A stretch of 64,000 nucleotides of DNA, taken from positions 237,064-301,063 of IMG/VR virus record IMGVR_UViG_3300031998_000001; one strand, written 5' to 3'. This DNA comes from a virus. Lineage: Duplodnaviria; Heunggongvirae; Uroviricota; Caudoviricetes. Position 1 is the stretch's first letter, and the number at the start of each line of letters is the position of its first letter. The translations under genes and the position numbers were made by a program. A model generated the notes under the pieces. The model was given only the letters and a program-made list of their open reading frames with translations, did not search any database and had not been told where the DNA came from. Positions 20,304-63,653 of the stretch are shown piece by piece.

Positions 20304-21080
20304 TCAGAACAACCTGCAACCAGCCTCCTTTATCCTCTTTTCTGCGACCTTATAATACTCTTCGTCAAGTTCGATGCCTATGAAGTTCCTGTCCGTGTTC
20401 ATACACGCCACACCAGTGCTCCCGCTCCCCATACAGTTATCCAGCACGGTTTCGTTTTTATTGGTGTATGTCCGTATCAGATATTCGAGCAGGGCGACTG
20501 GCTTCTGCGTGGGATGCACCTTGTCCCTGTCCCTGTTGAACCTTATTATGTTCTTCGGCATCCTCTCCCCGTTGTTCACGGTAAGCACACCCCCTTCTTT
20601 CGCACCATTGTCCCTGACAACCGCGCTGTTCGGCTTCTGCTTGCCACTCACACACGAATAAGGTTTCCCTTCGCTTTTCTGGGGACTGTAGAAAAGAGTA
20701 ATCCCGCTCTTGACAAATGATGACGCACCGTTGCCGAACACACAAATATCCTCCGTAACCTTGAGTGGCTGGAACTTGCTGTTAAGAAAATTAGTACCGT
20801 TGTCCTTCTCCCACACCCAGTTGTACTTCCACCATTCTATGTTCGAGCATATCAGTTTGCTCGTAAACGGCTGTTGCGAGAAAAGCACTATCGCACGCCC
20901 GTCCTTTATTATCCGCTTATAGTGTTCCCACAGTGGCTCGAACGGAATAACGCTGTCCCAACTGCAAGCCGTAGTGCCGTACGGCAAATCGCATAGAATG
21001 AGGTCTATGCTTTTGTCTGGAATCTGCTTCATCACTTCAAGGCAGTCACCGTTGTATAGATTGTATTCGCTCATAGTCAT
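20304..21080 (-). CDS. DNA N6-adenine/N4-cytosine methyltransferase (beta class)
   Basis: GDCLE, DLPY, HPTQKP, VLDNCMGSGSTG, FIGIE; ends GCRLF. Confidence 0.92.
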   Translation of the reverse strand: MTMSEYNLYNGDCLEVMKQIPDKSIDLILCDLPYGTTACSWDSVIPFEPLWEHYKRIIKDGRAIVLFSQQPFTSKLICSNIEWWKYNWVWEKDNGTNFLNSKFQPLKVTEDICVFGNGASSFVKSGITLFYSPQKSEGKPYSCVSGKQKPNSAVVRDNGAKEGGVLTVNNGERMPKNIIRFNRDRDKVHPTQKPVALLEYLIRTYTNKNETVLDNCMGSGSTGVACMNTDRNFIGIELDEEYYKVAEKRIKEAGCRLF

Positions 21081-21088
21081 TTATAATC

Positions 21089-22360
21089 TTAAAGCCCGAA
21101 AATCTCCGCGATATGGGCATCATCCTCGACTTCCATAAACTTGTCCACCGAATATCTCTTCCTGTCCGTACCGAAGGACAGCGAGCCTTTGTAGTGGGTG
21201 TTGCCGTATTCGGCTATCGCCTTCCTCTGCGCCTGTGTAATCGGGACTTCCCTGCGCCCGTCAACGCGGAAGTACCCGTCATAGAGAACCCAGTTCTTCG
21301 CCACCTTGACGAAGCCCTTTGCGCTCATAAGCCAAGCGTCAACGCTGTAGTTGAAGTCGGAGGGCTTCTCCCAGCCGTAGTATTCCATAATGGCATCCGC
21401 CATACTTATATGGAGGAGGTTCGACACCTCTCCGTCAATGCCGAAGTATGTGCCGTCTGGGGCGATGAAGCCAGCATCGTGGAGTTCTGAAATCGGGCAG
21501 GGCTTGAAGTCGGAGAGTGCCTTCTCCACTCTCTTCTCGCCTTCGAGGAAATCGTCAATCCCCTGCAACCCTATGGAAAACTTATCACGGCTCGGCTTCC
21601 CGTCAACATCATCGAGCCATTCCCGAACCTCGCCAGCGAACAGGTCTGCCGAAGTGCATACCCACTCGCACACCCTTTCGAGTTCCTTGCAGGCGGTCTT
21701 GCCCTCGTCGTCAACAACCATATTGTCCCTGACGAACCGTATCGTCGATATGATGTTGCTTCTCGTTTCTCCGAGCCTTCGGGAAAACACAAGCGAGCCG
21801 AGTGCCATAGAGAGAACACGGTGGGACTTGTCGTCCGCGCAGTCATACAGCCTGAACGGAAGTTCGTGGTCGTGGGAGAGATAATACGCGATTATCCTCC
21901 GAAGCGGTATGTACCTATTTTCCGACATACCGTCCAACAGCCCGTCAAACGCCCCGTCGAGTTCTATGCTTACACAGATGTCCTTGTTGTTCTGCAAGTA
22001 GAACAATGTGTTCTGGCGGTACTCGTTCCAAGCACCCTCTATGCTCCCGCTCCCGTCAACCGAGAGAGCCTCCCTTATGCTCCTTATGATGTCGCCGACC
22101 GAGAACGACGGGTAGCCCGACAAGTCCTTCTCCGAGTATTCGTCGCGGGGCTTGACCATAACTTCCGTCACCCCGTCCCCCTCCACGCACATAAGGTACT
22201 TGCCCGCAGTGAGTGCAACGGCAACCTCCCTGCCCATTCCCGGAAACGAGTCAGTCCACAGCGAGACCGCCTCCTCTGGGGAGAGGTCAAGCAGGTGCGA
22301 CCAAGAGAGTTCGTGCAAAATCTTTCCTGTATTTCTTCCGAGTGTAAATCCGACTTCCAT
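21089..22360 (-). CDS. hypothetical protein
   Basis: 423-aa ORF; GFIAPDG..H motif. Confidence 0.75.
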   Translation of the reverse strand: MEVGFTLGRNTGKILHELSWSHLLDLSPEEAVSLWTDSFPGMGREVAVALTAGKYLMCVEGDGVTEVMVKPRDEYSEKDLSGYPSFSVGDIIRSIREALSVDGSGSIEGAWNEYRQNTLFYLQNNKDICVSIELDGAFDGLLDGMSENRYIPLRRIIAYYLSHDHELPFRLYDCADDKSHRVLSMALGSLVFSRRLGETRSNIISTIRFVRDNMVVDDEGKTACKELERVCEWVCTSADLFAGEVREWLDDVDGKPSRDKFSIGLQGIDDFLEGEKRVEKALSDFKPCPISELHDAGFIAPDGTYFGIDGEVSNLLHISMADAIMEYYGWEKPSDFNYSVDAWLMSAKGFVKVAKNWVLYDGYFRVDGRREVPITQAQRKAIAEYGNTHYKGSLSFGTDRKRYSVDKFMEVEDDAHIAEIFGL

Positions 22361-22372
22361 AATCTTATCTTT

Positions 22373-22780
22373 TTAGTTGCCAATCTTATCTTCAAACCTA
22401 TCGTATGGTGCTTTGTACTTGACGCGCTTCGCGTTAAGGCACATATCCATAAACTCCTTCTTTCCCGATGCGTTGAGTTTGTTGTACGACACGATTGTCA
22501 TACCAGAGCGTCCGTTCCAGCGGTTGAGCGTTACATTGGACTTGCCGTCGTGCTCGTACACCTCAACCGAATACCACACGCCGACCATATCCCACGCCAC
22601 AAGCCTTGTATCAAACGGATTGGGCTGGGGGTTCTCGTATTTGAGCGTGGTCTTGCCGTATTTCAAGGTGTATTCGTTGTCGGCAATGGGGTTAACAAAA
22701 TCAACCTCGTATCCCGCCTCAATGAGCCTGTGCGTAGCCTCGCTTGCGGTAAGTGCCCTTTGTCTTTTTCCCTGTTCCAT
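22373..22780 (-). CDS. hypothetical protein
   Basis: 135 aa, first gene after promoter. Confidence 0.7.
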   Translation of the reverse strand: MEQGKRQRALTASEATHRLIEAGYEVDFVNPIADNEYTLKYGKTTLKYENPQPNPFDTRLVAWDMVGVWYSVEVYEHDGKSNVTLNRWNGRSGMTIVSYNKLNASGKKEFMDMCLNAKRVKYKAPYDRFEDKIGN

Positions 22781-26998: not shown

Positions 26999-27958
26999 CT
27001 AAAAAAGTTTAACCGAATTTATCTTCCTTGCCTCTCCAATTCTTCTTTGTGCAACAGCGAAATATCCCTCGTCGAGTTCGATGCCTATGAAGTTCCTGCT
27101 CGTGTTCATACAGGCTACGCCCGTGCTTCCGCTTCCCATACAGTTATCCAGCACGGTTTCGTCCCCGTTGGAATATGTCCGTATGAGAAACTCAAGCAGG
27201 GCGACTGGCTTCTGGGTAGGATGCAAGCCAGTTTCACGGGCGAAGCGAAGCACACTCTTCGGGTAGCCCGTCTTTGTCTGTATGTACGCATCCCTCTTGC
27301 CTTCGGATGCAATATGGTTAAGCGTACCGCCCTTCCCCTTGTTCGAGCAAGCCTCGAATGTATCGGCAAGTTCGAGATTGTATGTATGCCTCGACTTCTC
27401 GTACTTGTCATATTCGTCTGGGATACCGAACAACCCGCAGAGTTTAGCCCACTGCTCCCTTGTCGGGAACTGCCTCCCGCTTATCTTGTTGCTCAACCAC
27501 CCAGTCCTGTTCCCGTTCTTTGAAAGGAAGAGTTCCGACACCTCCCCGTATGAAAGCCCAAGCCTCTCCATATTGCTCGTTATTATGTCCGAGAATGTCT
27601 TGCACTCGGTATTGTCATAGAACACGGAGATATTCTCGTGGACTTTCAACGGCTGTTCATTCGCAAGTTGGAAGTTCCCAGCATTGTTCTTCTCCCATAT
27701 CCAGTCGTAGCGATACCAGTCGAGGTTGCTCACCCGAAGAAGCGACGAGAAAGGCTCGCTACCGAAAAGCGCAATGACACCGTTCTGCTTCAGCACCCTC
27801 CTGTACTGCGCCCACAGTGGCTCGAACGGGATAACGCTGTCCCAAGCACAGGCTGTCGTCCCGTAGGGCAGGTCGCACAGAACCAAGTCGATGGACTTGT
27901 CTGGAATCTGCTTCATCACTTCGAGGCAGTCGCCGTTGTACAATCTGCATTCGCTCAT
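26999..27958 (-). CDS. DNA N6/N4 methyltransferase (beta class) with inserted HTH
   Basis: DLPY, HPTQKP, DNCMGSGS; HTH-like insert RLGLSYGEVSELF; ends SVKLF. Confidence 0.92.
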   Translation of the reverse strand: MSECRLYNGDCLEVMKQIPDKSIDLVLCDLPYGTTACAWDSVIPFEPLWAQYRRVLKQNGVIALFGSEPFSSLLRVSNLDWYRYDWIWEKNNAGNFQLANEQPLKVHENISVFYDNTECKTFSDIITSNMERLGLSYGEVSELFLSKNGNRTGWLSNKISGRQFPTREQWAKLCGLFGIPDEYDKYEKSRHTYNLELADTFEACSNKGKGGTLNHIASEGKRDAYIQTKTGYPKSVLRFARETGLHPTQKPVALLEFLIRTYSNGDETVLDNCMGSGSTGVACMNTSRNFIGIELDEGYFAVAQRRIGEARKINSVKLF

Positions 27959-27960: not shown

Positions 27961-28698
27961 TTAAAACAGGCATTTCCTTTCCTTGAACACCCCTCCGTTT
28001 TCGGAAACATAGGGTTTAAGCCGTTCATTTGCAAGTTTGTAATACTTCTCGTCAATCTCAAAGCCTATGAACTTCCGTCCGCTTGTGGCGCAGGCGACCG
28101 CCGTGCTTCCGCTTCCCATAAACGGGTCGAGCACCACTTCGCCTTCGAGCGTCGAGTTCGTTACGAGCGTTTTCATAAGTTCGACTGGCTTCTCGCTGTC
28201 GTGGGCGTTGCTCCCGTCATCATTCTTTGTTTTCCTGTTCGGTATGGAGATTATGTCCGAGCAACCGCAGTCGTTAATCTGCTTGTCCTTTCCCTTGCGT
28301 ATGAATATTATGTATTCGTACTGCCCCATATAGTAGCGTCCGCATATCTTGTTCTGCTTGTCCCATATCAGGCACTTCGTGAAGTGGAACTTGCTCCGCC
28401 CTATCACTTCGAGGAAATGGCAGATGTTATAGTTGTTTGTCATTATGTAGCAGTGGGCATCGTCCTTCAGCAGACGGTAGAACTCGCCTATGTAGTCCTC
28501 AATGTCGATGTCGTTGTGGTCGAATATCTTTCCCTCCATAGACTTGTCGGTGGTTATGTATCCGCTCATCGTCCCGCTACACCCTTTCGGCATAATCCTG
28601 TATGGCGGGTCTGTCGCGATGAGGTCTATGCACCCGTCTGGAAGTTGACGCATACCTTCGAGGCAGTCCATATTGTATATCTTATTAAATTCAAACAT
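27961..28698 (-). CDS. DNA N6/N4 methyltransferase (beta class)
   Basis: DPPY, EKPVEL, DPFMGSGS; ends RKCLF. Confidence 0.92.
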   Translation of the reverse strand: MFEFNKIYNMDCLEGMRQLPDGCIDLIATDPPYRIMPKGCSGTMSGYITTDKSMEGKIFDHNDIDIEDYIGEFYRLLKDDAHCYIMTNNYNICHFLEVIGRSKFHFTKCLIWDKQNKICGRYYMGQYEYIIFIRKGKDKQINDCGCSDIISIPNRKTKNDDGSNAHDSEKPVELMKTLVTNSTLEGEVVLDPFMGSGSTAVACATSGRKFIGFEIDEKYYKLANERLKPYVSENGGVFKERKCLF

Positions 28699-28699: not shown

Positions 28700-29482
28700 T
28701 CAGAAAAGTTTATTCTTGTCGGTTTCGATTTTGGTTTCCGTTTTGCCAGTCGCTTCCTTTATCCTTCGCTCCGCAATCCCAAAGTAGTCTTTATTGAGTT
28801 CTATCCCAATGAAGTTCCTGCCCGTATTCATACACGCAACACCCGTGCTTCCGCTCCCCATAGTGTTATCGAGGATTGTATCGCCCTCGTTGCTATATGT
28901 CCGTATAAGGTATTCGAGCAGGGCGACTGGCTTCTGCGTGGGATGCACCGAAACGCTCGGATGCGGTTTCTGGAACTGGATTATGCTGGTCGGGTACTTC
29001 ATATCGTCATTGACATCGACATCTTTCGGCTTGTAACTGCCGTAGTTGTTGTTCGTCTCGCCCTTCGTGAATATGGCAGTGCCTTTCGTGTGGCTCGGCT
29101 TGCCCTTCGTTTTCTGCGGGTTGTAAACTGGCTTGCTTCTGTAGAACACGGCAATCTGCTCGTGTACCCTCAACGGCATAACCCTTGCGTTAAGGAAACC
29201 GCCCTTGAGCACCTTGTCCCAGACAATATCGTATCGGAAGTCCTTTCTGTTCGAGTGTACGAGGTCTGCGTAGAACAGCCCCTGCGCGAACAGGACTATC
29301 GGGGCTGTGTCCTTCGCTACCCTGTTATATTGCTCCCAGAGCAGGTCGAACGGAATTACCGCATCCCACTTGTTCTGCGTAGTGCCGTATGGCAAGTCGC
29401 AGAGCACCATATCCACGCTTCCGTCTGGTATAGACTTCATCACTTCGAGGCAATCGCCGTTGTATAACTTGTATTCAGCCAT
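28700..29482 (-). CDS. DNA N6/N4 methyltransferase (beta class)
   Basis: DLPY, HPTQKP, DNTMGSGS; ends KNKLF. Confidence 0.92.
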   Translation of the reverse strand: MAEYKLYNGDCLEVMKSIPDGSVDMVLCDLPYGTTQNKWDAVIPFDLLWEQYNRVAKDTAPIVLFAQGLFYADLVHSNRKDFRYDIVWDKVLKGGFLNARVMPLRVHEQIAVFYRSKPVYNPQKTKGKPSHTKGTAIFTKGETNNNYGSYKPKDVDVNDDMKYPTSIIQFQKPHPSVSVHPTQKPVALLEYLIRTYSNEGDTILDNTMGSGSTGVACMNTGRNFIGIELNKDYFGIAERRIKEATGKTETKIETDKNKLF

Positions 29483-29483: not shown

Positions 29484-30227
29484 TCAGAAAAGTTTGTTCT
29501 TGTTCATTTCAACTTCAATTTCCGCCTCGCGCTTCGCTTCCTCTATCCTTTGTTCGGCAGCATTAACATATTCCTCATTAAGTTCAAAGCCAATGAAATT
29601 GCGGTTCTCCTTGATGCAGGCGACGGCTGTCGTCCCTCCCCCGCAGAACGAGTCGAGGACGGTATCACCCTCGTTGCTTGAAAGAAGTATGAAGTCCCTG
29701 ATGAGTTCGACTGGCTTTCCTGTCGGATGATATTCGTCCGTCTTTACACCAGTCTTTATCTTTCCGTATGTATAGTTGGGATTGTCAGTTGGTATCTTGT
29801 TAAGCCCGTTGCCGTCGTACAGCCTTACGATATAGTCTATGTGGCTACGGAAGAACTTGTAACTAATCATATTAGACACCTGCCTGTCCCATACCAGAAG
29901 ATTGTACCTTATGCCGTGCTCCACTGCATATTTGAGGTAATAGCAGACCTGCATTTCCGAACAAAAGAAATACGAGTTCCATCCGTTTCTGAACTTCGGT
30001 GCTATGGCATCAAGCAGGGTACATATGTGTTCTCCGTCAAAATCTGACATATCGGAGTTTATATAGTTGCCCTTTGATTTTGTCCCCCTGCTGAACCTTT
30101 TGCTTGACATTCCGCCCTTTGTGAAAAGATATGGCGGGTCGGTAACAACCAAGTCGATGCTCCTGTCATCGACAGACCTTATCAGTTCCTTGTAGTTCCC
30201 GTGATATATTCTGTTCAGTTCAAGCAT
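29484..30227 (-). CDS. DNA N6/N4 methyltransferase (beta class)
   Basis: DPPY, HPTGKP, DSFCGGGT; ends KNKLF. Confidence 0.92.
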   Translation of the reverse strand: MLELNRIYHGNYKELIRSVDDRSIDLVVTDPPYLFTKGGMSSKRFSRGTKSKGNYINSDMSDFDGEHICTLLDAIAPKFRNGWNSYFFCSEMQVCYYLKYAVEHGIRYNLLVWDRQVSNMISYKFFRSHIDYIVRLYDGNGLNKIPTDNPNYTYGKIKTGVKTDEYHPTGKPVELIRDFILLSSNEGDTVLDSFCGGGTTAVACIKENRNFIGFELNEEYVNAAEQRIEEAKREAEIEVEMNKNKLF

Positions 30228-30228: not shown

Positions 30229-31122
30229 TCAGAAAAGTTTGTTCGTTATTTCGGAGATGCGCCACTTGGCGAGCCTCAAATACTTCCTGTCGATTTCAAC
30301 GGCGATGCACTTCCTGCCGAGTTCCATCGATGCGATTGGAACGCTTCCGCATCCGCAGAACGGGTCGAGCACCGTGTCGCCCTCGTTCGTGCTCGCCTCT
30401 ATCAACCGCCTTAAAAGTTTCTGGGGTTTCTGTGTCGGGTGGTATCTCTCCTCGTCATAGAAGTCTATGTCGTCCCATACATCCCCGAAGCCGACCTGCG
30501 GATTGAATGTCTGCGCGACCTTCCCGTACGACAGGTCGAACTTGAGTATCTCGGACAACTTGTCCCACATTTCCTTTTTCGGAAACTGCTCGCATACATT
30601 CCTGCCAGTGTACAGACTCCACATACCGCCCCCGTTCGACTTCACTCCGAGAGCATCGTTTATCTGCTTCGCCGACAAGCCGAGTTCCTTCTGCCTTTCC
30701 TTGAAGAACGGCTTTATGAACCTCTTGTTGTCCTTTATCGCAAAGAGTATGCTTTCGGTGGTGTTCGGGAACATCTTGTAGTTTCTCGTGGCACGCCCCG
30801 ATATTGAGCGCAAGCCCTTGTTCACGACTATCTGCTGGCGGAGTTCAAGCCCCAGTCTTTTCAGGTGCGGGACTATGAGAGCGAGCATTCGGAAGTATCC
30901 GAAGCAGTAGAGCGTACCTCCGCATCTTAATGTTCGGGACGCTTCCGAGAGCCACTTCAAAGTCCACTCCACATAGTCCTTCTCCGTGCGCCAAAGGTAG
31001 TCCCATTTCTCGCCTATCGCCTTGTAGTAGGGCGGGTCCGCTATCACCAAGTCAACGCTTCCGTCTGGTATTGCTTTCATCACTTCGAGGCAATCCCCGT
31101 CGTGCAATATAATGTCTTGCAT
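30229..31122 (-). CDS. DNA N6/N4 methyltransferase (beta class) with inserted HTH
   Basis: DPPY, HPTQKP, DPFCGCGS; HTH-like insert ELGLSAKQINDALG; ends TNKLF. Confidence 0.92.
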   Translation of the reverse strand: MQDIILHDGDCLEVMKAIPDGSVDLVIADPPYYKAIGEKWDYLWRTEKDYVEWTLKWLSEASRTLRCGGTLYCFGYFRMLALIVPHLKRLGLELRQQIVVNKGLRSISGRATRNYKMFPNTTESILFAIKDNKRFIKPFFKERQKELGLSAKQINDALGVKSNGGGMWSLYTGRNVCEQFPKKEMWDKLSEILKFDLSYGKVAQTFNPQVGFGDVWDDIDFYDEERYHPTQKPQKLLRRLIEASTNEGDTVLDPFCGCGSVPIASMELGRKCIAVEIDRKYLRLAKWRISEITNKLF

Positions 31123-31143: not shown

Positions 31144-31647
31144 TTAGAACAACTTGTTTTTTGTCTGCATATCCACATCGTTCTGGAAAAACCTGTTCAG
31201 CAGGCTCTTGTCCTTTATGCAGGAATACACATTGTCGTACAGCGTCTGCTGGATATGGTTCGGAAGTTCCCTTATCAGCGACAGGTAGTCAAGCCCGAAG
31301 TAGTCGGCAAATATGAGTATCATAAGCGACAGCGGGCAGTCCTTGCTGAACTTCTCGTAAACAATCATAAACGATGTTATGAAGTCCGCTGCCGTGCATT
31401 TCTTCCCGTTCTCGTCCGCTATGTTGTTATACTTGCCGTACGGTGATGACGCTATGTATGCCGTGATAGCGTTCTCGACATCGTTGAACTTGTCGCCTTC
31501 TATCTGCGCAAGTGCCTCCTCGTTGAGCGCGTTGGTCAAGTCCTTCTGCACATCCGTCAGGTCGAAATCGGTTGTATAGTCGGCATCCCCGTCATAGTAT
31601 TTAGATTTCAGTTTGCTGACATCTATGCTCTTGCCTTTCTGTCCCAT
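31144..31647 (-). CDS. putative late-transcription coactivator (T4 gp33-like)
   Basis: Acidic N-terminus, helical core ILIFADYFGLDYLSLIRELPNHIQQTL, C-terminal KNKLF tag. Confidence 0.45.
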   Translation of the reverse strand: MGQKGKSIDVSKLKSKYYDGDADYTTDFDLTDVQKDLTNALNEEALAQIEGDKFNDVENAITAYIASSPYGKYNNIADENGKKCTAADFITSFMIVYEKFSKDCPLSLMILIFADYFGLDYLSLIRELPNHIQQTLYDNVYSCIKDKSLLNRFFQNDVDMQTKNKLF

Positions 31648-34185: not shown

Positions 34186-34686
34186 ATGAACGACGACACA
34201 AAGAAACTCATACTTGAAAAGGCAAAGGAGCAGGAGATACTCGGCAACGAATATGTATCGCTGGAACAGGGTGCGAAAATCCTGATAAACGGCGCATACG
34301 GGGCTACTGGAACGCCAGCATTCGGATTCTATGACAGGGACTTCGCGGAGTGCATAACCAAGCAGGGCAAGAACGCCATACTCTATGCGGAAAGGTGCAT
34401 CAACAGTTACTTTATGAACGAGTGGGTACACGATACTGGGCTTCACAGGGCGATGGGCATAGAGGTTCACGGTGAGGTCAAGGGCGAGGTCAGCGTTTAC
34501 ATTGACACGGATTCGCTGGCTGGCGATTCTCTTATAACATTGTCGGATGATGTAATTGCCGTTGAAACGGAACACGGCATCAAAGTCTATCGTATGGACG
34601 ATAAAGTCAAGATACGCCGTAATGATATTGAAATGGAGATTTCGGCATCGGAAATGAAAGACGATGATATGCTAATTGTGGAATAA
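34186..34686 (+). CDS. polB: DNA polymerase B middle piece (motif B to YIDTD) fused to N-terminal split intein (34513-34683)
   Basis: KILINGAYG motif B, AECIT.QG, YIDTD followed by intein block A SLAGDSLI. Confidence 0.9.
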   Translation: MNDDTKKLILEKAKEQEILGNEYVSLEQGAKILINGAYGATGTPAFGFYDRDFAECITKQGKNAILYAERCINSYFMNEWVHDTGLHRAMGIEVHGEVKGEVSVYIDTDSLAGDSLITLSDDVIAVETEHGIKVYRMDDKVKIRRNDIEMEISASEMKDDDMLIVE

Positions 34687-35894
34687 TGGGCGGTATGGTG
34701 CATATTACACAGGACATATTGACGGGGCTTGAAGGCAACGGGACGACCAAATGCGAATGCTGCGGCAAATCAATCTGGTATGACACGACAAAGGTGTATA
34801 TGAGAAGCAACGGTACATATGGTAACAAATACGAGGGTACTACATACAGGAGTTCCAAAAACATATATGGTGTGAAGTACCCAATTCGTGTATGCCAAAA
34901 ATGCCTTGAAGAAAAATATCCAGACTTCGCGGATAAAAACAAATCAAGAATATTCAACACATTCAACAAGTATGTGGCGTATGCCTTTGGGATACCTGAT
35001 GAAATAATAAGAAAGAAAAACCAGTCGAGTGCCATTACCCTTGAGAATTGCATAAGAAAGTATGGCGAGGAAAGGGGAACTGAAATGTTCAATGAGTATA
35101 AAAGAAAGCAGGCATATTCCAATACATTCGAGTACAAGAGGGATAAGTTCGGATGGTCAAAGGAGCAGTTTGACAAGTATAACGCTTCAAGGGCTATCAC
35201 AATGTCCAATTTAATAAAACGGCACGGTGATGATGAAGGTATGCGAATCTGGAAGCAATATATCGAAAGGCAATCGTACACATCAACTTCCAAATATTTG
35301 TCCGAAATGTATGACGAATATGACAAGGAAACGATACGGTTGCTGAAATCCTGCAAGTTGGAAGGGTTCATTAGGCGTTATGGTGAAAGTGAAGGGTGTA
35401 GAAGATACGATGATTTTATAAACACCATCACTAAAAGGGATTGCAACACAGACAAGTATCACCAGTCCGAGATTGGCTTTAACTTCTTTGAGAAACTAAT
35501 TGAAAAGTTATCGGAGTCGGGGTGTCATTTCAAATATTATTATGGGGATTGCGAATTTAAGAAATATTCACACATAACGAACTCGTTGTACTCGCTGGAC
35601 TTTTATATACCCGAATTGAATGTTGCCGTTGAATTTAACGGAGACTACTGGCACGCCAATCCAGACATATACGAAGCCGATTGGTTTCACCCAGTAAAGA
35701 AACAATATGCCCGCGACATTTGGAAGCACGACAAGGAAAGGACTGAAGTTATTGAACAGGAATTTGGTATGACGGTATTTGTGGTGTGGGAAAAATCCAT
35801 TCTTACAGCAGAGAATATGGACAATACTATTTGTGAACTTTTAAATAAGATAAGGTATGTATCAGAAAATCAAGAAAATCACAAAAACGAATAA
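34686..35894 (+). CDS. free-standing homing endonuclease (Vsr/EDxHD-like C-terminal domain)
   Basis: Repeated KYGEE.G..[FY] units; DFYIPELNVAVEFNGDYWHANP; AT-richer; sits between the intein halves. Confidence 0.82.
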   Translation: MGGMVHITQDILTGLEGNGTTKCECCGKSIWYDTTKVYMRSNGTYGNKYEGTTYRSSKNIYGVKYPIRVCQKCLEEKYPDFADKNKSRIFNTFNKYVAYAFGIPDEIIRKKNQSSAITLENCIRKYGEERGTEMFNEYKRKQAYSNTFEYKRDKFGWSKEQFDKYNASRAITMSNLIKRHGDDEGMRIWKQYIERQSYTSTSKYLSEMYDEYDKETIRLLKSCKLEGFIRRYGESEGCRRYDDFINTITKRDCNTDKYHQSEIGFNFFEKLIEKLSESGCHFKYYYGDCEFKKYSHITNSLYSLDFYIPELNVAVEFNGDYWHANPDIYEADWFHPVKKQYARDIWKHDKERTEVIEQEFGMTVFVVWEKSILTAENMDNTICELLNKIRYVSENQENHKNE

Positions 35895-37332
35895 AATTAC
35901 AATCGAGCAGTTGTATGCACTCGGCAGACAGAATATGGGTTCTACCCCGAATGGGCACGAAAGCGTTGACTGCCCGTTCGGTATCCTTAACATAGGCAAT
36001 GACCTGCAAGCATATTACGGAGATGTAAGGCGTGTGATAAGGCACAAGGTCTCGAAGGAAAAGTGGGCTGTTGAGGATTGCTTCGGTAATGTGGTTTTCG
36101 TCACCGGCGACCACTCGCTTATGGTTATGCGCAACGGGGTGCTGGTAAAATCTACCCCGAAGGAGATGTGCGTTGATACCGATATGCTTGTGTCGGTTAC
36201 AGAAGGCGATATTACGGCAAATGGCATCGTGCGATGCGAATGTGTCGGGGTGTTTGACGATGAATATGTATATGATATTGAAATGAACGACGACACGCAT
36301 ACTTTTGTTGCGAACAATATGCTTGTCCATAATTCCTGTTACACATCCTACGACCAGATTATAGCCACTACGGACTGGTGCTACAAGGAGGGTGAGACGA
36401 ACTGGCGCATAAAGTTCCGCAAGCCGAACGACAAGCCTAACGAATACCGATACAGGTATTTCTGCGGGCGCAGGTCGGAGGAGTATGTGAAGCGGATATT
36501 CGGGCTTGACAACAAGGAGAAGGTCGCCGAGTATGAACTCGAAAGGGTGAGGGGCGAGGTAAAGGACTTCGTGCTTCTCATCAACGAACTCAAGATGGAA
36601 AAGTATTTCAGGCTGTGCTTCGACAGGTATGCCGAAATGTTGCAGACGGAGAACTACCTCGACTTTGAACTTGAGACATATTCGGACGCTGGCATCTGGC
36701 TCGCCAAGAAGAAGTATGTGCAGAACTTGCGCTGGAGCGACAAGTTGTCGAAGATTGACTGCTACCCGCCGTACTCGAAGATTAAGGCGAAGGGGATAGA
36801 GATGATACAGGCATCCGCCCCAGCCGCAGCGAGAAAAATCATAAAGAAGATTGTGGTGTGGATGTTCGAGCATCAGGGCTTCACGATAAACGAACTCCGC
36901 GACCAAGTGAAGGAGTGTCGGGCGGTGTTCGACAATTCCGACCCGAACGATATGTGCTGGAACAAGAAGCCCAACGGCTACGGCAACTATGTGCTGAAGG
37001 ACGATGTTGAACTTGTGCTCGCATCAAAGTGCCCGCCCACAATCTCGGCTTGCGCCCTGTACAACTACCTGCTGAAGCACAACGCCAGACTTATGAGCAA
37101 GTACCCGCTTCTTCGGGACGGAAACAAGTACAAGTATTATTACTGCGTGCCGATGCACGGGATTGAGATGTTCGCATACGAGGCTGGGCTTCTCCCGAAG
37201 GAGTTTGCGCCAGCGATAGACAAGGATGCCTGCTTCGAGCACGGGGTGCTCGACCCGCTGAACAGGATTATAACATCAATGGGCTTCAACAAGTTGTCCG
37301 TAAAACTCGAAGCGTTCAACAAGTTGTTTTAG
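35857..37332 (+). CDS. polB: C-terminal split intein (35857-36333) fused to DNA polymerase B palm/thumb
   Basis: Block B VTGDHS, YVYDIE, LVHN|S junction; KKKY, KAKGIE; ends FNKLF. Confidence 0.9.
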   Translation: MYQKIKKITKTNKITIEQLYALGRQNMGSTPNGHESVDCPFGILNIGNDLQAYYGDVRRVIRHKVSKEKWAVEDCFGNVVFVTGDHSLMVMRNGVLVKSTPKEMCVDTDMLVSVTEGDITANGIVRCECVGVFDDEYVYDIEMNDDTHTFVANNMLVHNSCYTSYDQIIATTDWCYKEGETNWRIKFRKPNDKPNEYRYRYFCGRRSEEYVKRIFGLDNKEKVAEYELERVRGEVKDFVLLINELKMEKYFRLCFDRYAEMLQTENYLDFELETYSDAGIWLAKKKYVQNLRWSDKLSKIDCYPPYSKIKAKGIEMIQASAPAAARKIIKKIVVWMFEHQGFTINELRDQVKECRAVFDNSDPNDMCWNKKPNGYGNYVLKDDVELVLASKCPPTISACALYNYLLKHNARLMSKYPLLRDGNKYKYYYCVPMHGIEMFAYEAGLLPKEFAPAIDKDACFEHGVLDPLNRIITSMGFNKLSVKLEAFNKLF

Positions 37333-37341: not shown

Positions 37342-38127
37342 ATGGAAATCAGGGGAAAGGTACACTGCTTCTTCGAGCAATCGGGAACATTCAAGAACGA
37401 GTTTATCAGGTTGGGGATACCAGCGGAGGACTACGACCTGAAGGACAACTTCGGTCAGACGGATAATGTCGTTGATTTGTTCGATGCGATAGAGGACGCA
37501 TACGAAGGCAAGCCGAGCCTGTTCGACAATATAACGCCAGACGATTTGATATTCGCCTTCTTCCCGTGCATAAAGTTCTGCAATGTGGCGGAGTTCAACC
37601 AGAGTTCAAAGGCTGATGTTATGCGCAGGCACGGCGCGTCGGTAGAAAAGGTGTACGCCTACCTGAAGAAGGAGAGCGACGAGAGGTATTTCTTCTACCA
37701 GAAATGCCTGAAAATGCACGCAGTCGTGGAGATGCGCGGGCTTCGTATGATAATGGAAAACCCGTGGGGCGAACTCAACTACACAAACCACTTCTGGTTC
37801 AAGAAGGTGACGCTGATAGACAGGGACAGGACGAAAAGGGGCGACTACTTCGTCAAGCCCACTGGATACTGGTACACGAACTGCGAGCCGACTATGCTCG
37901 AAACATACCAGCCCGTAGCACCAGAGAAGCGCAAATGGGTGTCGGCTGGAAGTTGGACGGACGATGTGCATAAGTTTACATCGGAGCAGGTGGCGAAGCC
38001 GTCAAGGAAGATGGGCGAGTGTTCGGAGGAACGCTCGCTGATTAGCCCAGACTACGCCCGCAACTTCATCTGCGACTTCGTGCTTGGGATAAGGCAGGAC
38101 GGGATAACGAAAGGCAAACTATTCTAA
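37342..38127 (+). CDS. divergent C5-cytosine methyltransferase-like protein
   Basis: FEQSG (motif-I-like), DLIFAFFPC (motif IV), MENP (motif VI), KPT; ends KGKLF. Confidence 0.65.
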   Translation: MEIRGKVHCFFEQSGTFKNEFIRLGIPAEDYDLKDNFGQTDNVVDLFDAIEDAYEGKPSLFDNITPDDLIFAFFPCIKFCNVAEFNQSSKADVMRRHGASVEKVYAYLKKESDERYFFYQKCLKMHAVVEMRGLRMIMENPWGELNYTNHFWFKKVTLIDRDRTKRGDYFVKPTGYWYTNCEPTMLETYQPVAPEKRKWVSAGSWTDDVHKFTSEQVAKPSRKMGECSEERSLISPDYARNFICDFVLGIRQDGITKGKLF

Positions 38128-38149: not shown

Positions 38150-38605
38150 ATGAAGAATTTTGACGACACCAAGACGGTTGCGAACAACGCGAAACTCGAA
38201 GCCGAGTTCCGTGACGAGCGTGCCGACTGGAATGTGAAGATAGGCGAACTGCTTGACAGCGTGCGCAACAACAGCAGGCTTTCGGAGGCGCAGGCTTTCG
38301 GGCTTTCGTACAGGCAGATGCTCGTGGAGAAGATGACGCAGTACAGGATTGCGATGCACAAGAAGTCTGGCACTTTCGACAAGGTGAAGGTCGAGAGGTA
38401 CAAGCAGTATATGACGGAGGGCGACTACAAACTCACGGCTTCGGAGAGGGCTGACTTCGTTTCCGCAGACCTCTCGGCGGTGAAACTCCAGTTGCAGTTG
38501 CTCCAAGACCAGATAGACTGGATTGCCGAGACATTGCAGACGCTTTCGAGTTTGCAGTTCGCCATAAAGAACAAGATTGAAATCATAAAGGAGGAAATCG
38601 CGTAA
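38150..38605 (+). CDS. uvsY: recombination mediator UvsY-like
   Basis: Helical protein with FVSAD...F.IKNKIE C-terminal signature. Confidence 0.7.
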   Translation: MKNFDDTKTVANNAKLEAEFRDERADWNVKIGELLDSVRNNSRLSEAQAFGLSYRQMLVEKMTQYRIAMHKKSGTFDKVKVERYKQYMTEGDYKLTASERADFVSADLSAVKLQLQLLQDQIDWIAETLQTLSSLQFAIKNKIEIIKEEIA

Positions 38606-40149
38606 TGATACTCGAAATAAAGCAACGACCAGAAACCAACGACCTCACATTCTCCTATGTTGACAAGAGCGGGGAGATACGGCACTGCGTATGCCCGATT
38701 ATAGACAGGGACAGGAAGATTGACGACAACTTCAACTGGGTGGAATGTTCGGCAAACGACAACCAGAGGATACCCGGCAAGATGAACTGGAACGGAAGGT
38801 GCGTCAAGAGAAGCGTGCATTCCGTATTTGACGCATACGACAAGAGCAAGACTGGCTTCGAGAAACTCACGCAGTCGAGATGTATGGAAATCATACAGTC
38901 GCGGTACGGTGGGGACTTTCTCGATGAGGTCAACTGCTTCAAGATGCCGAAGATGACATTCATTGATATTGAAACTGGTATGAGCGAGGACGGCTTCGAG
39001 CGACCAGAGACCGCTGGTCAGCCAGTCACCGTGATAGGTATGGCTACGGAGAGCCACGAGATAACGGTGTTCGGGACGCGGGTGCTCAACAGGGACGAGC
39101 AGGACAGGATACAGTACCTCATAAACGAGCATACGAAGTCCCTCCCCTCCCAGATACACTTCGACTTCAAGTACAAATACTTCGCGAAAGAGGAGGATAT
39201 GCTTGAATGTTTCTTCAGGGAGATGAAGCATATGGGTATGATAAGCGGGTGGAATGTGGTCGAGTTCGACTGGGCGTACCTCTACAACAGGGGCAGGATA
39301 CTCGGCAAGAACGCCAAGTACCTCGCTGGCGAGTTCAATATGTTGAGCGGAAAGGACAACATACCCACGCACATCCCGATTGTTGACTATATGGAGTGCT
39401 ACCGCAAGTGGGACAGGAGCGTGGAGCAGAAGGAGAACTACAAACTCGACCAAGCGGGCTACGATGTACTGAAAATGCAGAAGGTTCACTTCGACGGCTC
39501 GTTGCAGGACTTGTACGAGAGGGACTTCCCGATGTATGTCTATTACAACGCAATCGACTGCATACTCGTCGAGCAGTTGCACGAGAGGTTGCGCCTTGCC
39601 GACATCGGCTGTACCCTCGCTTGGATTGCGAAGACACCAGTGAACAGGATGATGAGCGTGGTCGCGACAACCGAAGGTGCGCTCACGGACGCATACAGGC
39701 GGAGCGGAAGGGTGGTTGCCGACAGCAAGTGGAAGGCGGGCAAGGACGCGGAGGGCTACGAGGGTGCTTTCGTGAAAGAGCCAGTGGTCGGTCTGCACCT
39801 CTATGTTTCGTGCAACGACTTCGCCTCGCTGTACCCGAACATAATCAGGACGCTGAATATGTCCCCCGAAACATTCTACAAGAAGGTGGACGAGGACGAT
39901 ACGGTCGCAAAGGAGAAGTGGAAGAAGAAGGGCTACATAGTAAGCGAGAGCGGGTGCGTGTTCCAGCCGAACACCACACCGGGCGTGTTCGCCACCCTCA
40001 TCGGCGACCTCTACAAGCAGAGAAAGGCTTTCAAGAAAAAGAGTTATGTCTGCGCGGACAAGCAGAGGAGGCTCGAAGAACTTGCCGAGAGGATAGACCT
40101 GACGGACGAGGAGGCGTTAGCCGAAATGCACAAGATACTCGGCGAATAA
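38605..40149 (+). CDS. polB: DNA polymerase B N-terminal piece (3'-5' exonuclease, motif A, first fingers helix)
   Basis: FIDIET, GWN..FD, YKLD, YNAID, YEGAFV.EP, DFASLYPN, LYKQRK. Confidence 0.93.
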   Translation: MILEIKQRPETNDLTFSYVDKSGEIRHCVCPIIDRDRKIDDNFNWVECSANDNQRIPGKMNWNGRCVKRSVHSVFDAYDKSKTGFEKLTQSRCMEIIQSRYGGDFLDEVNCFKMPKMTFIDIETGMSEDGFERPETAGQPVTVIGMATESHEITVFGTRVLNRDEQDRIQYLINEHTKSLPSQIHFDFKYKYFAKEEDMLECFFREMKHMGMISGWNVVEFDWAYLYNRGRILGKNAKYLAGEFNMLSGKDNIPTHIPIVDYMECYRKWDRSVEQKENYKLDQAGYDVLKMQKVHFDGSLQDLYERDFPMYVYYNAIDCILVEQLHERLRLADIGCTLAWIAKTPVNRMMSVVATTEGALTDAYRRSGRVVADSKWKAGKDAEGYEGAFVKEPVVGLHLYVSCNDFASLYPNIIRTLNMSPETFYKKVDEDDTVAKEKWKKKGYIVSESGCVFQPNTTPGVFATLIGDLYKQRKAFKKKSYVCADKQRRLEELAERIDLTDEEALAEMHKILGE

Positions 40150-44382: not shown

Positions 44383-44592
44383 AACGCCTGACAAGATGCT
44401 ATATTGTATTATTTATATGTGGAAAGAGAATGGGGGAGCGTTTCATCCCACTCCCCCGAACACCAGTCCTTTCTGCGAGAAATTGGTAGCGAAATTCATT
44501 CTGCAAGCCTGATGTATGCTGACGGCAAATGCTACCTCCGTGTATGTTATTTATATCTTGGCGCGTACTGGTGTTTTTTTTTCAACAAATTT

Positions 44593-44621
44593 CTGAAATC
44601 TATTCCGTTTCCCAATATATT
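44593..44621 (+). promoter_or_regulatory. CTGAAA-N17-TATATT phage promoter driving the second MTase operon
   Basis: Exact match. Confidence 0.8.
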
Positions 44622-44641
44622 AGCAATAAATAGTCTGGAAG

Positions 44642-45526
44642 ATGAACAACTTGCAACCCGTCATAAAATGGTCTGGCTCGAAGCGAAGCCAAGCAAAGGC
44701 GATAGTGTCCCTCGTCAGCGGGCGTTACGGCACTTACTACGAGAGTTTCTGCGGAGGGTGCTCCGTCCTCTACTACATACTGAACAACCGACCAGAACTG
44801 TTCAGGAGATATGTGTGCAACGACATCAACGAGCCTCTAATCGAACTCTATCGCCTGATAATGTCAGACCACAGGCGCGTGTGGAAATCGTACACCGAAC
44901 TCTGGCACGGACTTAACGACGGGAAGGGTGCTGGCGACCTTGACAAGAAGAAGGAGTATTTCTACAAGGTCAGGGACGAGTTCAACAGGACGCACTCCCC
45001 CGAACTGTTCTTCTTCATTATGCGGACGACAACCAACGGTATGCCGAGATACAATGCGGACGGGGACTTCAACAACTCCTTCCATTTCACGAGGGACGGG
45101 ATAACGCCAGACGGTGCGCTCGAAGTCCTCGAAGAATGGTCTCGGACGCTCAACAGGCACAATGTGGAGTTCAGGAGCGGAAGTTACGACCGCATATCGC
45201 CAGAGGCGGACGACTTCCTGTATCTCGACCCGCCGTACTACAACACGAAGGGTATGTACTACGGAACTATAGACTTCGACGGGCTGTGGAACTACCTCCG
45301 TGGCGTGCCGTGCGACTACTTCTTGAGTTTTGACGGGCTTGCTGGAGACATCGACTTAACAGCCCCCGTGCCAAGTGACATATATGACGAGCACAGACTG
45401 CTCGACGGCGGGAACTCGTCGTTCCGCAGGCTGATAGGCAAATCCCGCGACACAATAGTCAGGGAAAGCCTCTACATAAGAAAGAAACGCAACACCAATA
45501 TATTGGCTATAAATAAGTTGTTCTGA
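44642..45526 (+). CDS. Dam-family (D12, alpha class) adenine methyltransferase
   Basis: IKWSGSK, YYESFCGG, YN..G.FN, YLDPPY; ends INKLF. Confidence 0.9.
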   Translation: MNNLQPVIKWSGSKRSQAKAIVSLVSGRYGTYYESFCGGCSVLYYILNNRPELFRRYVCNDINEPLIELYRLIMSDHRRVWKSYTELWHGLNDGKGAGDLDKKKEYFYKVRDEFNRTHSPELFFFIMRTTTNGMPRYNADGDFNNSFHFTRDGITPDGALEVLEEWSRTLNRHNVEFRSGSYDRISPEADDFLYLDPPYYNTKGMYYGTIDFDGLWNYLRGVPCDYFLSFDGLAGDIDLTAPVPSDIYDEHRLLDGGNSSFRRLIGKSRDTIVRESLYIRKKRNTNILAINKLF

Positions 45527-45537: not shown

Positions 45538-46338
45538 ATGGCTGAATACAAGTTATACAACGGCGACTGCCTCGAAGTGATGAAGTCGATACCCGACGGA
45601 AGCATAGACCTTATTCTATGCGATTTGCCCTACGGCACTACGGCTTGCAGTTGGGATGTCGTAATTCCGTTCGAGCCGTTGTGGAAGGAATATGACAGGA
45701 TTGCAAAGGACACCGCCCCGATAGTCCTGTTCGGCTCACAGCCGTTCACTACGCTTATGGTCGCATCAAACATAAGGAACTTCAGGGAGGAACTCGTGTG
45801 GCTCAAAAACAAGAGCGGAAGCGGTCTGCACGCGGACAGGAGGCACATAAAGGTTCACGAGAACATAATGGTATTCTCGAAGGGGGCGTACACATTCAAC
45901 CCGCAGAAGTGGGAAGTGAAGGACAGGGAGTTCCTCGTACACAGGAAAGTCTTTGACTACGGATATGCCGACAACAACATATACGGAAGCGTGCGGGATA
46001 TGAAGAAGGCTGACGACGGGACGAGAAACCCGATAAGCGTGGTATCATACGAAGTCCCGTTCACACCGCAGAAGAAAAGGCAGTACACGGATGTTGACAT
46101 AAGGCTTCACCCGACACAGAAGCCCATCGCATTGCTCGAATACCTGATTAGGACATATTCCAACGAGGGCGATACGGTGCTCGACAACTGTATGGGAAGC
46201 GGTTCTACGGGTGTGGCGTGCATAAATACTGGGAGAAATTTCTTCGGCATTGAACTTGACGAGGAATACTACAAGGTCGCCGAGCAGAGAATCGGGGAAG
46301 CAAAAAGACAAACCACAGAAAGCATAAAACTATTCTGA
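45538..46338 (+). CDS. DNA N6/N4 methyltransferase (beta class)
   Basis: DLPY, HPTQKP, DNCMGSGS; ends SIKLF. Confidence 0.92.
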   Translation: MAEYKLYNGDCLEVMKSIPDGSIDLILCDLPYGTTACSWDVVIPFEPLWKEYDRIAKDTAPIVLFGSQPFTTLMVASNIRNFREELVWLKNKSGSGLHADRRHIKVHENIMVFSKGAYTFNPQKWEVKDREFLVHRKVFDYGYADNNIYGSVRDMKKADDGTRNPISVVSYEVPFTPQKKRQYTDVDIRLHPTQKPIALLEYLIRTYSNEGDTVLDNCMGSGSTGVACINTGRNFFGIELDEEYYKVAEQRIGEAKRQTTESIKLF

Positions 46339-46339: not shown

Positions 46340-47212
46340 ATGAACGAATATATCAAAAGTCCGATAAACTACACAGGCAACAAGTTCAAGTTGCTGGGGC
46401 AGATAATCCCGCTGTTCCCGTCAAAGATAAACAGATTCGTGGATGCGTTCGGCGGAAGCGGAACGGTAACGCTCAACACCAGCGCAAGGCAATACACATA
46501 CAACGAATTTGCGGAATATGTATATAAGATGTTCAGCGGGCTTATACACGGGGACTATGACGAGATAATAGAAAAGATAAACGCCACGATAGACGAATAT
46601 TCGCTTGACAAGACCAACGAGAACGGATACCTGAAATTAAGGGACGACTACAACAACGGCAGGAACGACTGGATAACCCTGTATGTCCTGTGCTGCTACG
46701 CATTCAACTCACAGGGGCGTTTCAACGGTGCTGGGAAGTTCAATATGCCTTTCGGCAAAGACCGCTCCTGCTTCAGCGATGTCCAGAAGGAAAACATACG
46801 GAGAATGAAAAACGGGTTCGACGGCAAATATGTAGGATGCACGAACCTGTCGTTCGACGAGATTGACTACTCCGCGCTCGGCTCTGGGGACTTCGTGTAC
46901 TTCGACCCGCCCTACTACGGAAGCACGGCGGTATATAACGAGAAGAACGGATGGACATACGCGCAGGAGAAGAAACTTGCCGAGATAGCCGATATGCTTG
47001 ACGGCAAAGGCATCAGTTTCGCAATATCCAACAACCTGAAATACGGAAACCAGATACTCGACGAACTGTGCGAACGCTACACGGCGATACATCTCGGAAG
47101 CAAGTACAACAACTCGTCATACCACAAGAAGGACAAGGAAGCATCGGACGATGAGGTTCTTGTAGTCAACTATGACATCAGCAGGTCAAACCTCCGCATA
47201 AAACTATTCTGA
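46340..47212 (+). CDS. Dam-family (D12, alpha class) adenine methyltransferase
   Basis: NYTGNK, DAFGGSG, RFN..G.FN.PFG, YFDPPY, EVLVVNY; ends RIKLF. Confidence 0.9.
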   Translation: MNEYIKSPINYTGNKFKLLGQIIPLFPSKINRFVDAFGGSGTVTLNTSARQYTYNEFAEYVYKMFSGLIHGDYDEIIEKINATIDEYSLDKTNENGYLKLRDDYNNGRNDWITLYVLCCYAFNSQGRFNGAGKFNMPFGKDRSCFSDVQKENIRRMKNGFDGKYVGCTNLSFDEIDYSALGSGDFVYFDPPYYGSTAVYNEKNGWTYAQEKKLAEIADMLDGKGISFAISNNLKYGNQILDELCERYTAIHLGSKYNNSSYHKKDKEASDDEVLVVNYDISRSNLRIKLF

Positions 47213-61407: not shown

Positions 61408-61447
61408 CACTCAACACCCAACATTCATAATTTTACATTTAGGTTTG

Positions 61448-61477: not shown

Positions 61478-61492
61478 AAAGAAAAAAAAAAG

Positions 61493-62341: not shown

Positions 62342-62351
62342 GGAGAAAGAT

Positions 62352-62606
62352 ATGGAAGGAAGAAAGATATACGACTACAGGTGGAGAGAGCCGTTCGGCA
62401 CGAACTGGTACACCACCCGATGCGAAGTGATAGGGGAGTACCCGAAGTCACTCAAGATTAAACTTCTCGGCTGTGGGAAGAACGGTATGCGCCCGGGCAC
62501 GGAACTCACCGTAAGGAAGGCTTCCGTCATCGGCTGGCAGGCTGAACAGAAGAAAGCCACAGCGACAGTTGACGACGGTTGGAAGGAATATACATACTTC
62601 TATTAG
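62352..62606 (+). CDS. hypothetical protein
   Basis: 84 aa in operon. Confidence 0.6.
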   Translation: MEGRKIYDYRWREPFGTNWYTTRCEVIGEYPKSLKIKLLGCGKNGMRPGTELTVRKASVIGWQAEQKKATATVDDGWKEYTYFY

Positions 62607-62609
62607 GAT

Positions 62610-63653
62610 ATGATAAGGGTGTTCACTACATTCAGCGGTTATGACAGCCAGTGCGTTGCGCTCGAAAGGCTCGGACTGGAATACGAACTCGTAGGCTGGT
62701 CGGAAATCGACAAGTACGCGATAGAGGCGCATAATGCGCTTTTCCCACAGTATGCCGAACGGAACTACGGGGACATAAGAAGCATTGACTGGTCGCAAGT
62801 TCCTGATTTCGACCTGTTTACTTATTCATCGCCTTGTACGGACTTCAGCATCGCTGGCTTAAAGCAGGGCGGTGAGAAGGGAAGCGGAACTCGCTCTTCG
62901 CTGTTGTGGGAATGCGAAAGGGCTATCTCCGAGAAGCGTCCGAAATATCTCGTTATGGAGAATGTCGCGACGCTTATGGGGGAAAGTTTCATAGACCTCC
63001 TGAACAAATGGCTCAAGACGCTCGAAGGCTACGGATACAAGAACTTCGCGAAACTCATCAACGCGAAGGACTACGGGGTTCCACAGAACAGACTGCGCAC
63101 CATAGTTGTCAGCATACATCAGGACGAGAACACCAAGTGGCACGAGATAATGTACAACTTCCCAGAGCCGAAAAGAACGAAGGGGAAAATGAGCGACATA
63201 CTCGAAAACGAAGTCGATAGGAGATATTATATCGGAATGGACGGCAAGAGTCTGGAAATAATACCGAGGCGCAATATGTACGAGTACGACACTTCAAATG
63301 TGATAGCGATGATTTCTGGAAAAGGATACGGCACGAAGTTCGAGTCCATAAGGCGGGTGTACGACATAAACGCCCTTGCGCCCACGATTACGACATACGG
63401 TGGCGGAAACAGGGAGGCGAAGATTATGCTTGAGGATTCGGACGGCAGGAAGTCGGTAAGGAAACTGACGGAGCGCGAATGCTTCCGACTGATGGGGCTT
63501 AACGACGCGGAGATAGACGCGATAAAAGCCACTGGTGCAAGCAGGACACAGCAGTACAAGATGGCTGGAAACTCAATCTGCGTCAACGCGCTCTCGGCTG
63601 TGTTCGACAAACTTTTCGTGCATACTGCGGACAAGGAAAAACGGTTATTCTGA
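62610..63653 (+). CDS. C5-cytosine DNA methyltransferase (Dcm-family)
   Basis: FSGYD, SEID, SSPCTDFS.AG, MENV, PQNR.R, YKMAGNS; ends EKRLF. Confidence 0.92.
   Translation: MIRVFTTFSGYDSQCVALERLGLEYELVGWSEIDKYAIEAHNALFPQYAERNYGDIRSIDWSQVPDFDLFTYSSPCTDFSIAGLKQGGEKGSGTRSSLLWECERAISEKRPKYLVMENVATLMGESFIDLLNKWLKTLEGYGYKNFAKLINAKDYGVPQNRLRTIVVSIHQDENTKWHEIMYNFPEPKRTKGKMSDILENEVDRRYYIGMDGKSLEIIPRRNMYEYDTSNVIAMISGKGYGTKFESIRRVYDINALAPTITTYGGGNREAKIMLEDSDGRKSVRKLTERECFRLMGLNDAEIDAIKATGASRTQQYKMAGNSICVNALSAVFDKLFVHTADKEKRLF

Follow-up and report, generated by a model that had tools for sequence, protein, structure and literature searches.

The window considered here is a stretch of 64,000 nucleotides, positions 237064-301063 of the tailed-phage record IMGVR_UViG_3300031998_000001 (hereafter G000), and the subject is a series of DNA methyltransferases (MTases) of unrelated classes within it whose proteins end in Leu-Phe (LF). 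G000 is a single contig of 387,654 bases and is 93% complete by CheckV. Genes were called with our own dicodon gene caller, which gave 524 genes in G000, 78 of them wholly inside the window, and Pfam was run over these 78 and over 412 of the 446 remaining genes (≥70 aa). The families matched, comprising portal, gp23 capsid, terminase, gp32, a DnaB-type helicase, a gp44-type loader, a UvsW-like helicase, topoisomerase II, and a split DNA polymerase (PolB), give the picture of a T4-like jumbo phage. Since named phages that infect Flavobacterium, Chryseobacterium, and Prevotella are among the polymerase matches, a Bacteroidota host may be weakly suggested.

Pfam assigns seven of the window MTases to PF01555 (beta class), two to PF02086 (D12/alpha-class adenine MTases), and one to PF00145 (C5 cytosine MTases). 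The first beta-class gene, a putative N6/N4 enzyme with the motifs DLPY and DNCMGSG, lies at 20304..21080 on the minus strand and ends in AGCRLF. Five others form an array on the same strand, at 26999..27958 (ending NSVKLF), 27961..28698 (ERKCLF), 28700..29482 (DKNKLF), 29484..30227 (NKNKLF), and 30229..31122 (ITNKLF); in the relative G002, orthologs of the first three end in EKKLF, ERKLF, and NKKLF, respectively. The array is headed by a 167-aa protein without a family match (31144..31647, minus strand), which ends TKNKLF and whose G002 homolog, 32% identical, ends WTKLF. On the plus strand, the seventh beta-class gene (45538..46338, ending ESIKLF; AKTLF in the G002 ortholog) lies between the two D12 genes, at 44642..45526 (AINKLF) and 46340..47212 (LRIKLF), and the tail of the latter is added past the usual end of the family, xNY. 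For the former, the gene caller had chosen a start at 44705; an ATG is present at 44642, and the Pfam D12 match was confirmed from there. The C5 gene (62610..63653, plus strand) ends KEKRLF, and its homologs mostly end QxxLF. A C5-like MTase at 37342..38127 (plus strand) ends TKGKLF, with homologs mostly ending QL[S/T]LF; it has no Pfam match and was assigned from phrog_757 ('DNA methyltransferase', E 5.5e-21) and the presence of FFPC/ENP motifs. A second phrog_757 C5-like MTase (63677..64000, plus strand) continues past the window to 64405 and ends SFDRLF, and the next gene after it (64417-65601; L014:781-1962) encodes a radical-SAM enzyme ending NSKKLF.

The same tail closes the phage polymerase. 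PolB occurs as three open reading frames (ORFs; 34186-37332 and 38605-40149), with the N-terminal piece downstream. The middle piece (34186..34686, plus strand; PF00136) carries at its end, after VYIDTD, an intein-like N-terminal fragment; a homing-endonuclease-like ORF (34686..35894, plus strand; phrog_3339 and phrog_559) interrupts the intein, and the intein remainder is joined to the PolB C-terminal piece (35857..37332, plus strand; PF14890, weak), whose AFNKLF serves as the reference tail. The N-terminal piece, with the exonuclease and the start of the polymerase domain (38605..40149, plus strand; PF03104 and PF00136), has no tail. The short N-side fragment of the interrupted intein apparently duplicates a portion of the long C-side one. 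Rfam gave no match at gathering score over the whole window, and therefore no known intron family is indicated in the PolB interruption. In relatives, PolB has a plainer split intein at four loci (L335, L339, L050, and L075) and an intact mini-intein in others.

Within the window, LF endings occur in 13 of the 78 genes, namely 11 MTases, the PolB C-terminal piece, and the 167-aa protein. An earlier note, made from the window sequence alone, had listed exactly these genes, and each of its 11 MTases is an ORF at the position and with the last five residues that it gave. Its name for the 167-aa protein, gp33-like, was not borne out by Atlas, PF16805, or the PDB, and this protein has no Pfam, PHROG, Atlas, or relevant PDB match. 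Across the genome, LF closes 16 of the 524 called genes, where the frequency of LF inside proteins would predict 1.6 (Poisson P 3e-11); the 16 comprise 12 MTases, the PolB C-terminal piece, RNase H (a 5'-3' exonuclease ending GKLF), the radical-SAM enzyme (KKLF), and the 167-aa protein at 31144. The count of 11 complete MTases holds for the window; G000 has 14, with one more at its edge (DRLF) and two elsewhere in the genome without LF, which end RKLW and ERIF. Thus, LF closes 12 of 14 MTases versus 4 of 510 other genes (Fisher P 2e-19), and [LI][FW] closes 14 of 14 versus 9 of 510, enrichment P values being optimistic because the MTases include paralogs. The structural genes have no tail, and the LF-enders with a family match besides the MTases are PolB, RNase H, and the radical-SAM enzyme. 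Position -3 is Lys or Arg in 13 of the 14 MTases.

The Leu-Phe anchor lies beyond the folded domain: besides its presence in 12 of 14 MTases, the beta-enzyme tails extend past the last helix, and the tail of the D12 enzyme at 46340 extends past its family end. The charged linker described earlier is found in the eight beta enzymes as a tail past the last helix, and it varies, with 8-19 residues of which 25-59% are charged. All 14 enzymes retain their catalytic motifs intact (D[LP]PY plus motif I in 8/8 beta, DPPY in 2/2 D12, and PC plus ENV/ENP in 4/4 C5 and C5-like). A degenerate D12 paralog near gp32 and RNase H (L004:17718-18386; genome 73061-73729), the only such case (n=1), has YAPL for DPPY and no tail.

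With regard to the level at which the tails are constrained, five different Leu codons, each of the two Phe codons, and each of the three stops are found among 18 of them; such varied codons point to selection at the protein level, acting on the peptide. Synonymous variation among tails also ruled out an LF-stop DNA element. Another candidate, that the CTC codon is absent from tails through avoidance of CTCTTC, was rejected, as CTCTTC occurs 220 times versus 214 expected. The tails might instead be a by-product of array building, in which genes recombining at a shared stop/start junction inherit the last codons of a neighbour without benefit. The tandem genes 28700, 29484, and 30229 do share their last three codons, the stop, and the next four bases, and the last four codons are common to 45538 and 46340. 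However, the shared identity ends within about five codons, dispersed genes (20304, 37342, 62610, RNase H, and PolB) use other codons, and orthologs keep LF where their flanks diverge; largely refuted already by synonymous variation, this explanation is highly improbable.

A gp45-like clamp was sought and found. The gp45 Pfam model PF09116 gave no match in G000, and a gene of 278 aa (genome 30614-31450) was chosen by eye near DNA ligase and then tested. Its structure neighbours in Atlas are PCNA clusters (TM 0.70-0.72). The AlphaFold (AF2) model was poor when built from five sequences (pLDDT 48) and reached pLDDT 88 and pTM 0.84 with a 21-row alignment; in a Foldseek search of the clamp model, the best match was PCNA (E 1.3e-11, TM 0.65). 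At the sequence level, archaeal PCNAs were the top five of six PDB matches of a 142-row profile, all weak (E 0.009-0.12), and a 21-sequence profile had no PDB sequence match. A loop of the clamp with the residues Y42-P44-H46-D47-V49-K50 is conserved. In many related loci, the clamp homolog immediately precedes the gene for the PolB C-terminus, and viral contigs searched with the PolB N-terminal protein and a 5-row clamp alignment gave no relatives. That G000 encodes a PCNA-fold sliding clamp is supported by these structural predictions. A gp44-type loader is also encoded (Gp44_lid, PF21328; E 3e-11). A conserved 194-aa gene (L014:1982-2563), which lies beside RNase H in relatives, has no Pfam match, and ends EGLF in its G006 homolog, may resemble the clamp-loader small subunit gp62, by its motif alone.

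In RB69, gp43 binds gp45 through its C-terminal tail. The best PDB match of the PolB profile is a 903-aa gp43-type polymerase, which we take to be RB69 gp43 (E 9e-114), aligned to residue 880 with remaining tails of about equal length. Among 15 aligned PolB C-termini (14 of 16 longer homologs plus the query), 13 end KLF, one ends SLF, and the most distant ends QLTLEGFFA. In 80 related viral loci, many of them near-copies, 79 PolB proteins end LF, mostly SLF.

The pattern is repeated in relatives. In G002 (413 kb, complete), 22 of 548 called genes end in LF, including all 11 MTases found by profiles and Pfam; the others are PolB (SALF), RNase H, the homolog of the 31144 protein, the topoisomerase II large subunit, dUTPase, a resolvase, a GNAT protein, and four without a family. 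Four ortholog pairs of G000 and G002 keep LF, with diverged upstream residues. At ten metagenome loci of closer relatives, three MTases, one topoisomerase subunit, and one RNase H were found, all LF-ending, and a Mom-family gene beside PolB in G003 and G004 ends HRLF.

Where the polymerase tail changes, the MTase tails partly follow. In G006 (363 kb), PolB ends EGLW, and the 17 MTase ORFs comprise five ending LW, four ending LF, and eight untailed; LW is found in 5 of 9 tailed MTases there versus 1 of 25 in G000 and G002 together (P 0.002). In the examined loci of four other records whose PolB ends GLW (G011-G014), 18 MTase ORFs, taken from stop-to-stop frames and including some pieces of split C5 genes, comprise seven LW, six LF, and five untailed. 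In G011, PolB ends ETGLW and a C5 piece ends YTGLW. C5 MTases in these records (L545, L546, L548, and L543) appear split into an N-terminal ORF of about 250 aa and a C-terminal ORF, each with its own LW or LF tail.

The origins of the tails differ among MTase families. For the beta class, a quick tree was made from 140 proteins (8 from G000, 7 from G002, and 125 homologs) with the last 10 residues removed, the homologs having been kept from 160 loci after open, motif-less, and over-long frames were dropped. By well-supported branches, it indicates at least six separate origins for the eight G000 enzymes, two of which sit on long branches. The 160 loci are small samples of the sequence collections; 15 of them end [LIM][FW] (13 by classifier and 2 by eye), with Gln 4-5 residues from the end in seven. 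The LF tail of the D12 enzyme at 46340 recurs among its nearest proteins, being present in 12 of 14 (≥59%, counting the query), once as QLSLF, and in none of the next 106 homologs, 102 of which stop at TNY; by this distribution, the tail appears to be a de novo extension. In the C5-like family of 37342, 72 of 80 loci were classified as 18 with Q..LF, 26 with Q..LF plus a few residues, 10 with LF lacking Gln, and 18 other, and six of the eight unclassified loci end LF. Of the 73 loci with homologs of the C5 enzyme at 62610 that include a C-terminus, 51 end Q..LF, with only 21 distinct tails. The C5 and C5-like tails were therefore likely retuned from an inherited QLxLF, with the Gln lost, rather than added. 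The earlier proposal that the tail was added convergently is consequently apt for 46340 and is better worded as added or retuned for the whole set; the finding of QLxLF at the same position in C5 and C5-like homologs of other phages, part of what had been named as refuting, weakens convergent addition and strengthens clamp binding.

The same homology raises the possibility that the tails have degenerated from bacterial beta-clamp motifs and act on host DnaN, alone or in addition to the phage clamp, perhaps in order to methylate host or early phage DNA. The canonical QL[S/T]LF of the 37342 and 62610 homologs and the beta-class loci ending [LIM][FW], seven of them with Gln, speak for it, and according to the accessible part of a review of beta-clamp partners, LF alone can suffice for beta-clamp binding, Gln being important and not required (PMC11139829). 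On the other side, Gln is kept in none of the 14 G000 MTases, the same tail is present on a phage gp43-type PolB that has its own clamp, and the shift from Phe to Trp tracks the phage PolB. Action through host DnaN is thus unlikely.

The preferred reading is that the C-terminal [K/R]-Leu-Phe is the docking motif of this phage lineage for its own PCNA-fold clamp, tethering the MTases to newly copied DNA. Because of the tail distribution, the clamp fold, the conservation of the tail, the QLxLF homology, and the partial co-variation, docking is probable. The clamp-binding motif suggested earlier thereby gains a clamp gene, a clade-wide PolB tail at the position of the gp43 tail, repetition in G002, and a co-varying last residue. 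In the proposed mechanism, the Leu-Phe pair would insert into a hydrophobic pocket of the phage clamp, as the PolB tail would, and the phage clamp would be chosen over the host clamp. MTases would use clamps at the fork or left behind it, and the tether would raise the completeness of progeny-genome methylation, with a mainly anti-restriction purpose. Incoming MTase genes may gain the tail either by de novo extension, as in 46340, or by trimming an inherited beta-clamp motif of the host type, QLxLF, so that its Gln is lost, as in 37342 and 62610.

Several observations weigh against docking on the phage clamp. The motif is only 2-3 residues long, and, as noted above, LF alone can bind the bacterial beta-clamp. 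Ligase, the sigma factor at 32039-32620 (ending RKMLR), gp44, and UvsW have no tail, and some LF-enders of G002 have no DNA-related family match. In the records with PolB ending GLW, 10 of 22 MTase tails are still LF, and, because these records are close kin, the co-variation amounts to about one independent switch; in G006, 8 of 17 MTase ORFs have no tail. LF or LW tails were found in none of 17 MTases of three other jumbo phages (LR745206.1, LR756501.1, and Lak-C1), and the tails are therefore lineage-specific and not needed by phage MTases generally. A short motif that needs a free C-terminus might also be a signal for another hub, such as a C-terminal degron read by a protease of the phage or the host, or a site that docks on gp32 or on a different protein of the replisome; a ClpA/B-type AAA protein (PF07724) is encoded in G000, and the G002 carriers lacking a DNA-related match would fit such a signal as well. 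Against this stand the positional homology of the tail to QLxLF and to the gp43 tail, and the fact that carriers of known family are DNA-acting or nucleotide enzymes, which makes another hub quite improbable.

Restriction appears to have shaped this genome strongly. CATG is found 0 times in G000 versus 3221 expected (both strands), and AGCT, GATC, CTAG, CCWGG, TTCGAA, CTCGAG, and GTCGAC are likewise at zero in 388 kb, with many 6-base palindromes absent; such zero counts imply heavy restriction pressure. They also mean that GATC, CATG, AGCT, CTAG, and CCWGG are avoided rather than methylated, and the phage's own DNA offers its two D12 enzymes no GATC target. The main palindromic sites are thus handled by avoidance, which counts against the preferred reading, and the methylation of many host R-M sites proposed earlier would not extend to them. 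Extreme site avoidance was also noted in G002, G004, and G006, and the avoided sets differ between relatives: CGWCG is absent in G002 and common in G000, and GCWGC and GAWTC are depleted in G000 and little in G002. The earlier statement that there is no restriction endonuclease agrees with the lack of any Pfam or other family match to one in the genes scanned, most genes of G000 being without annotation; PADLOC matched none of the 17 non-MTase proteins scanned alongside the MTases, and its best models for the MTases are Type II MTases.

A variant shares the docking step with the clamp reading and differs in purpose: MTases would ride the clamp, and methylation would serve mainly for regulation (late transcription, packaging, or marking of replicated DNA) or defence against competing phages. 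The prior absence of common palindromic restriction sites fits this variant, which is nevertheless rather unlikely, given the strong restriction pressure implied by extreme site avoidance, the Type II character of the best PADLOC models, and the difference of MTase repertoires between relatives.

Docking on the phage clamp can be compared with several known systems. As in T4/RB69, where gp43, gp55, and gp33 use such peptides, G000 has a gp43-family polymerase that ends in a short hydrophobic peptide common to other phage proteins, together with a phage-encoded PCNA-superfamily clamp and a gp44-type loader. The clamp motif of gp33 and gp55 is given as LDFL in the available text of PMC9690074, whereas the tails of G000 are basic [K/R][L/I][F/W] and do not conform to LDFL. 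The clients differ too, being gp43, gp33, and gp55 in T4/RB69 and, presumably, 14 DNA MTases and other DNA enzymes in G000, where the sigma factor is untailed and a gp33 was not confirmed. The bacterial beta-clamp consensus, given as Q-aliphatic-x-[L/M]-[F/L] in the accessible sections of PMC11139829 and known as QL[S/D]LF in Pol II, Pol IV, Pol V, Hda, and transposases, shares the terminal Leu-Phe anchor and is found at the same position in homologs of two G000 MTase families, but its Gln and the aliphatic residue at position 2 are absent from the G000 tails. The accessible portion of this review contains neither 'methyltransferase' nor 'methylase'.

In eukaryotes, DNMT1 is tethered to PCNA and methylates newly replicated DNA, as stated in the part of PMC9690074 that is available, and it likewise places a DNA MTase on a PCNA-fold clamp. 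It serves maintenance methylation through a PIP box, while G000 would use a C-terminal tail on many prokaryotic-type MTases of three classes; the PIP box consensus Qxx[I/L]xxFF (PMC9690074, same portion) does not describe the G000 tails. Phage orphan MTases without a partner endonuclease, including those of jumbo phages, have been read as anti-restriction in the accessible text of PMC7824862 and PMC12707154, and G000 resembles such arsenals in having multiple stand-alone MTases with intact catalytic motifs and no endonuclease family match alongside. In the same portions of these two sources no clamp tether is described, and the word 'clamp' does not occur in that of PMC12707154. In the literature covered, with subscription journals largely outside the coverage, no precedent was found for clamp-binding tails on phage MTases. 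The tails would represent known clamp-peptide chemistry on a new client class.

At stake is how simple orphan enzymes could completely methylate many copies of a 390-kb genome, and a clamp tether would be the prokaryotic-virus counterpart of DNMT1-PCNA coupling. In a wider form, the chances of which we regard as evenly balanced, clamp-coupled DNA modification would be a general and overlooked phage strategy, in which phages relying on the host replisome place QLxLF on their MTases and phages with their own clamp append, or obtain by rewriting, a lineage-specific tail that tracks the polymerase tail. This would apply to DNA-modifying enzymes of any kind (three MTase classes, Mom/GNAT, and radical SAM) as well as to topoisomerase II and dUTPase. 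If this is true, the last residues of the polymerase predict the whole clamp interactome of a phage and point to unannotated DNA-modifying enzymes. As an annotation handle, the tail marks out the radical-SAM gene, the 167-aa protein, and the topoisomerase subunit, each a likely client of the clamp.

The radical-SAM enzyme lies directly after three MTase-region genes, has no close homolog in G002 or G004, and is a candidate for a new DNA-modifying enzyme. The topoisomerase II large subunit (L005:12673-14652; genome 87816-89798) has the LF end in G002 and L330 and no tail in G006; in G000, KLKLF is followed by five more residues before the stop, an overrun that could reflect a one-base slip in a T run, with which the DNA is consistent. 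It is a possible clamp client. A 227-aa gene without a Pfam match in the MTase array next to PolB of G006 (L508:6937-7620) ends IPLW and is a candidate DNA-modifying enzyme; ORFs with a similar end were seen in L606 and L607, and SLF and ALF ends in relatives.

Some other features were noted in G000. Four IS605-type TnpB genes (window 2112-3317, L005:10442, L011:2368, and L018:2604) and one IS1595-type transposase (L009:3657) are present. Before the 44642 MTase, 1.3 kb (window 43357-44640) contain no called gene, and the minus strand there resembles coding sequence of lower GC. In addition, anti-Thoeris matches were obtained for Tad3 (PF25185) and Tad8 (PF25189) at L002:10128-11000 and L015:5815-6144, and the Tad3 gene is the immediate upstream neighbour of the clamp gene.

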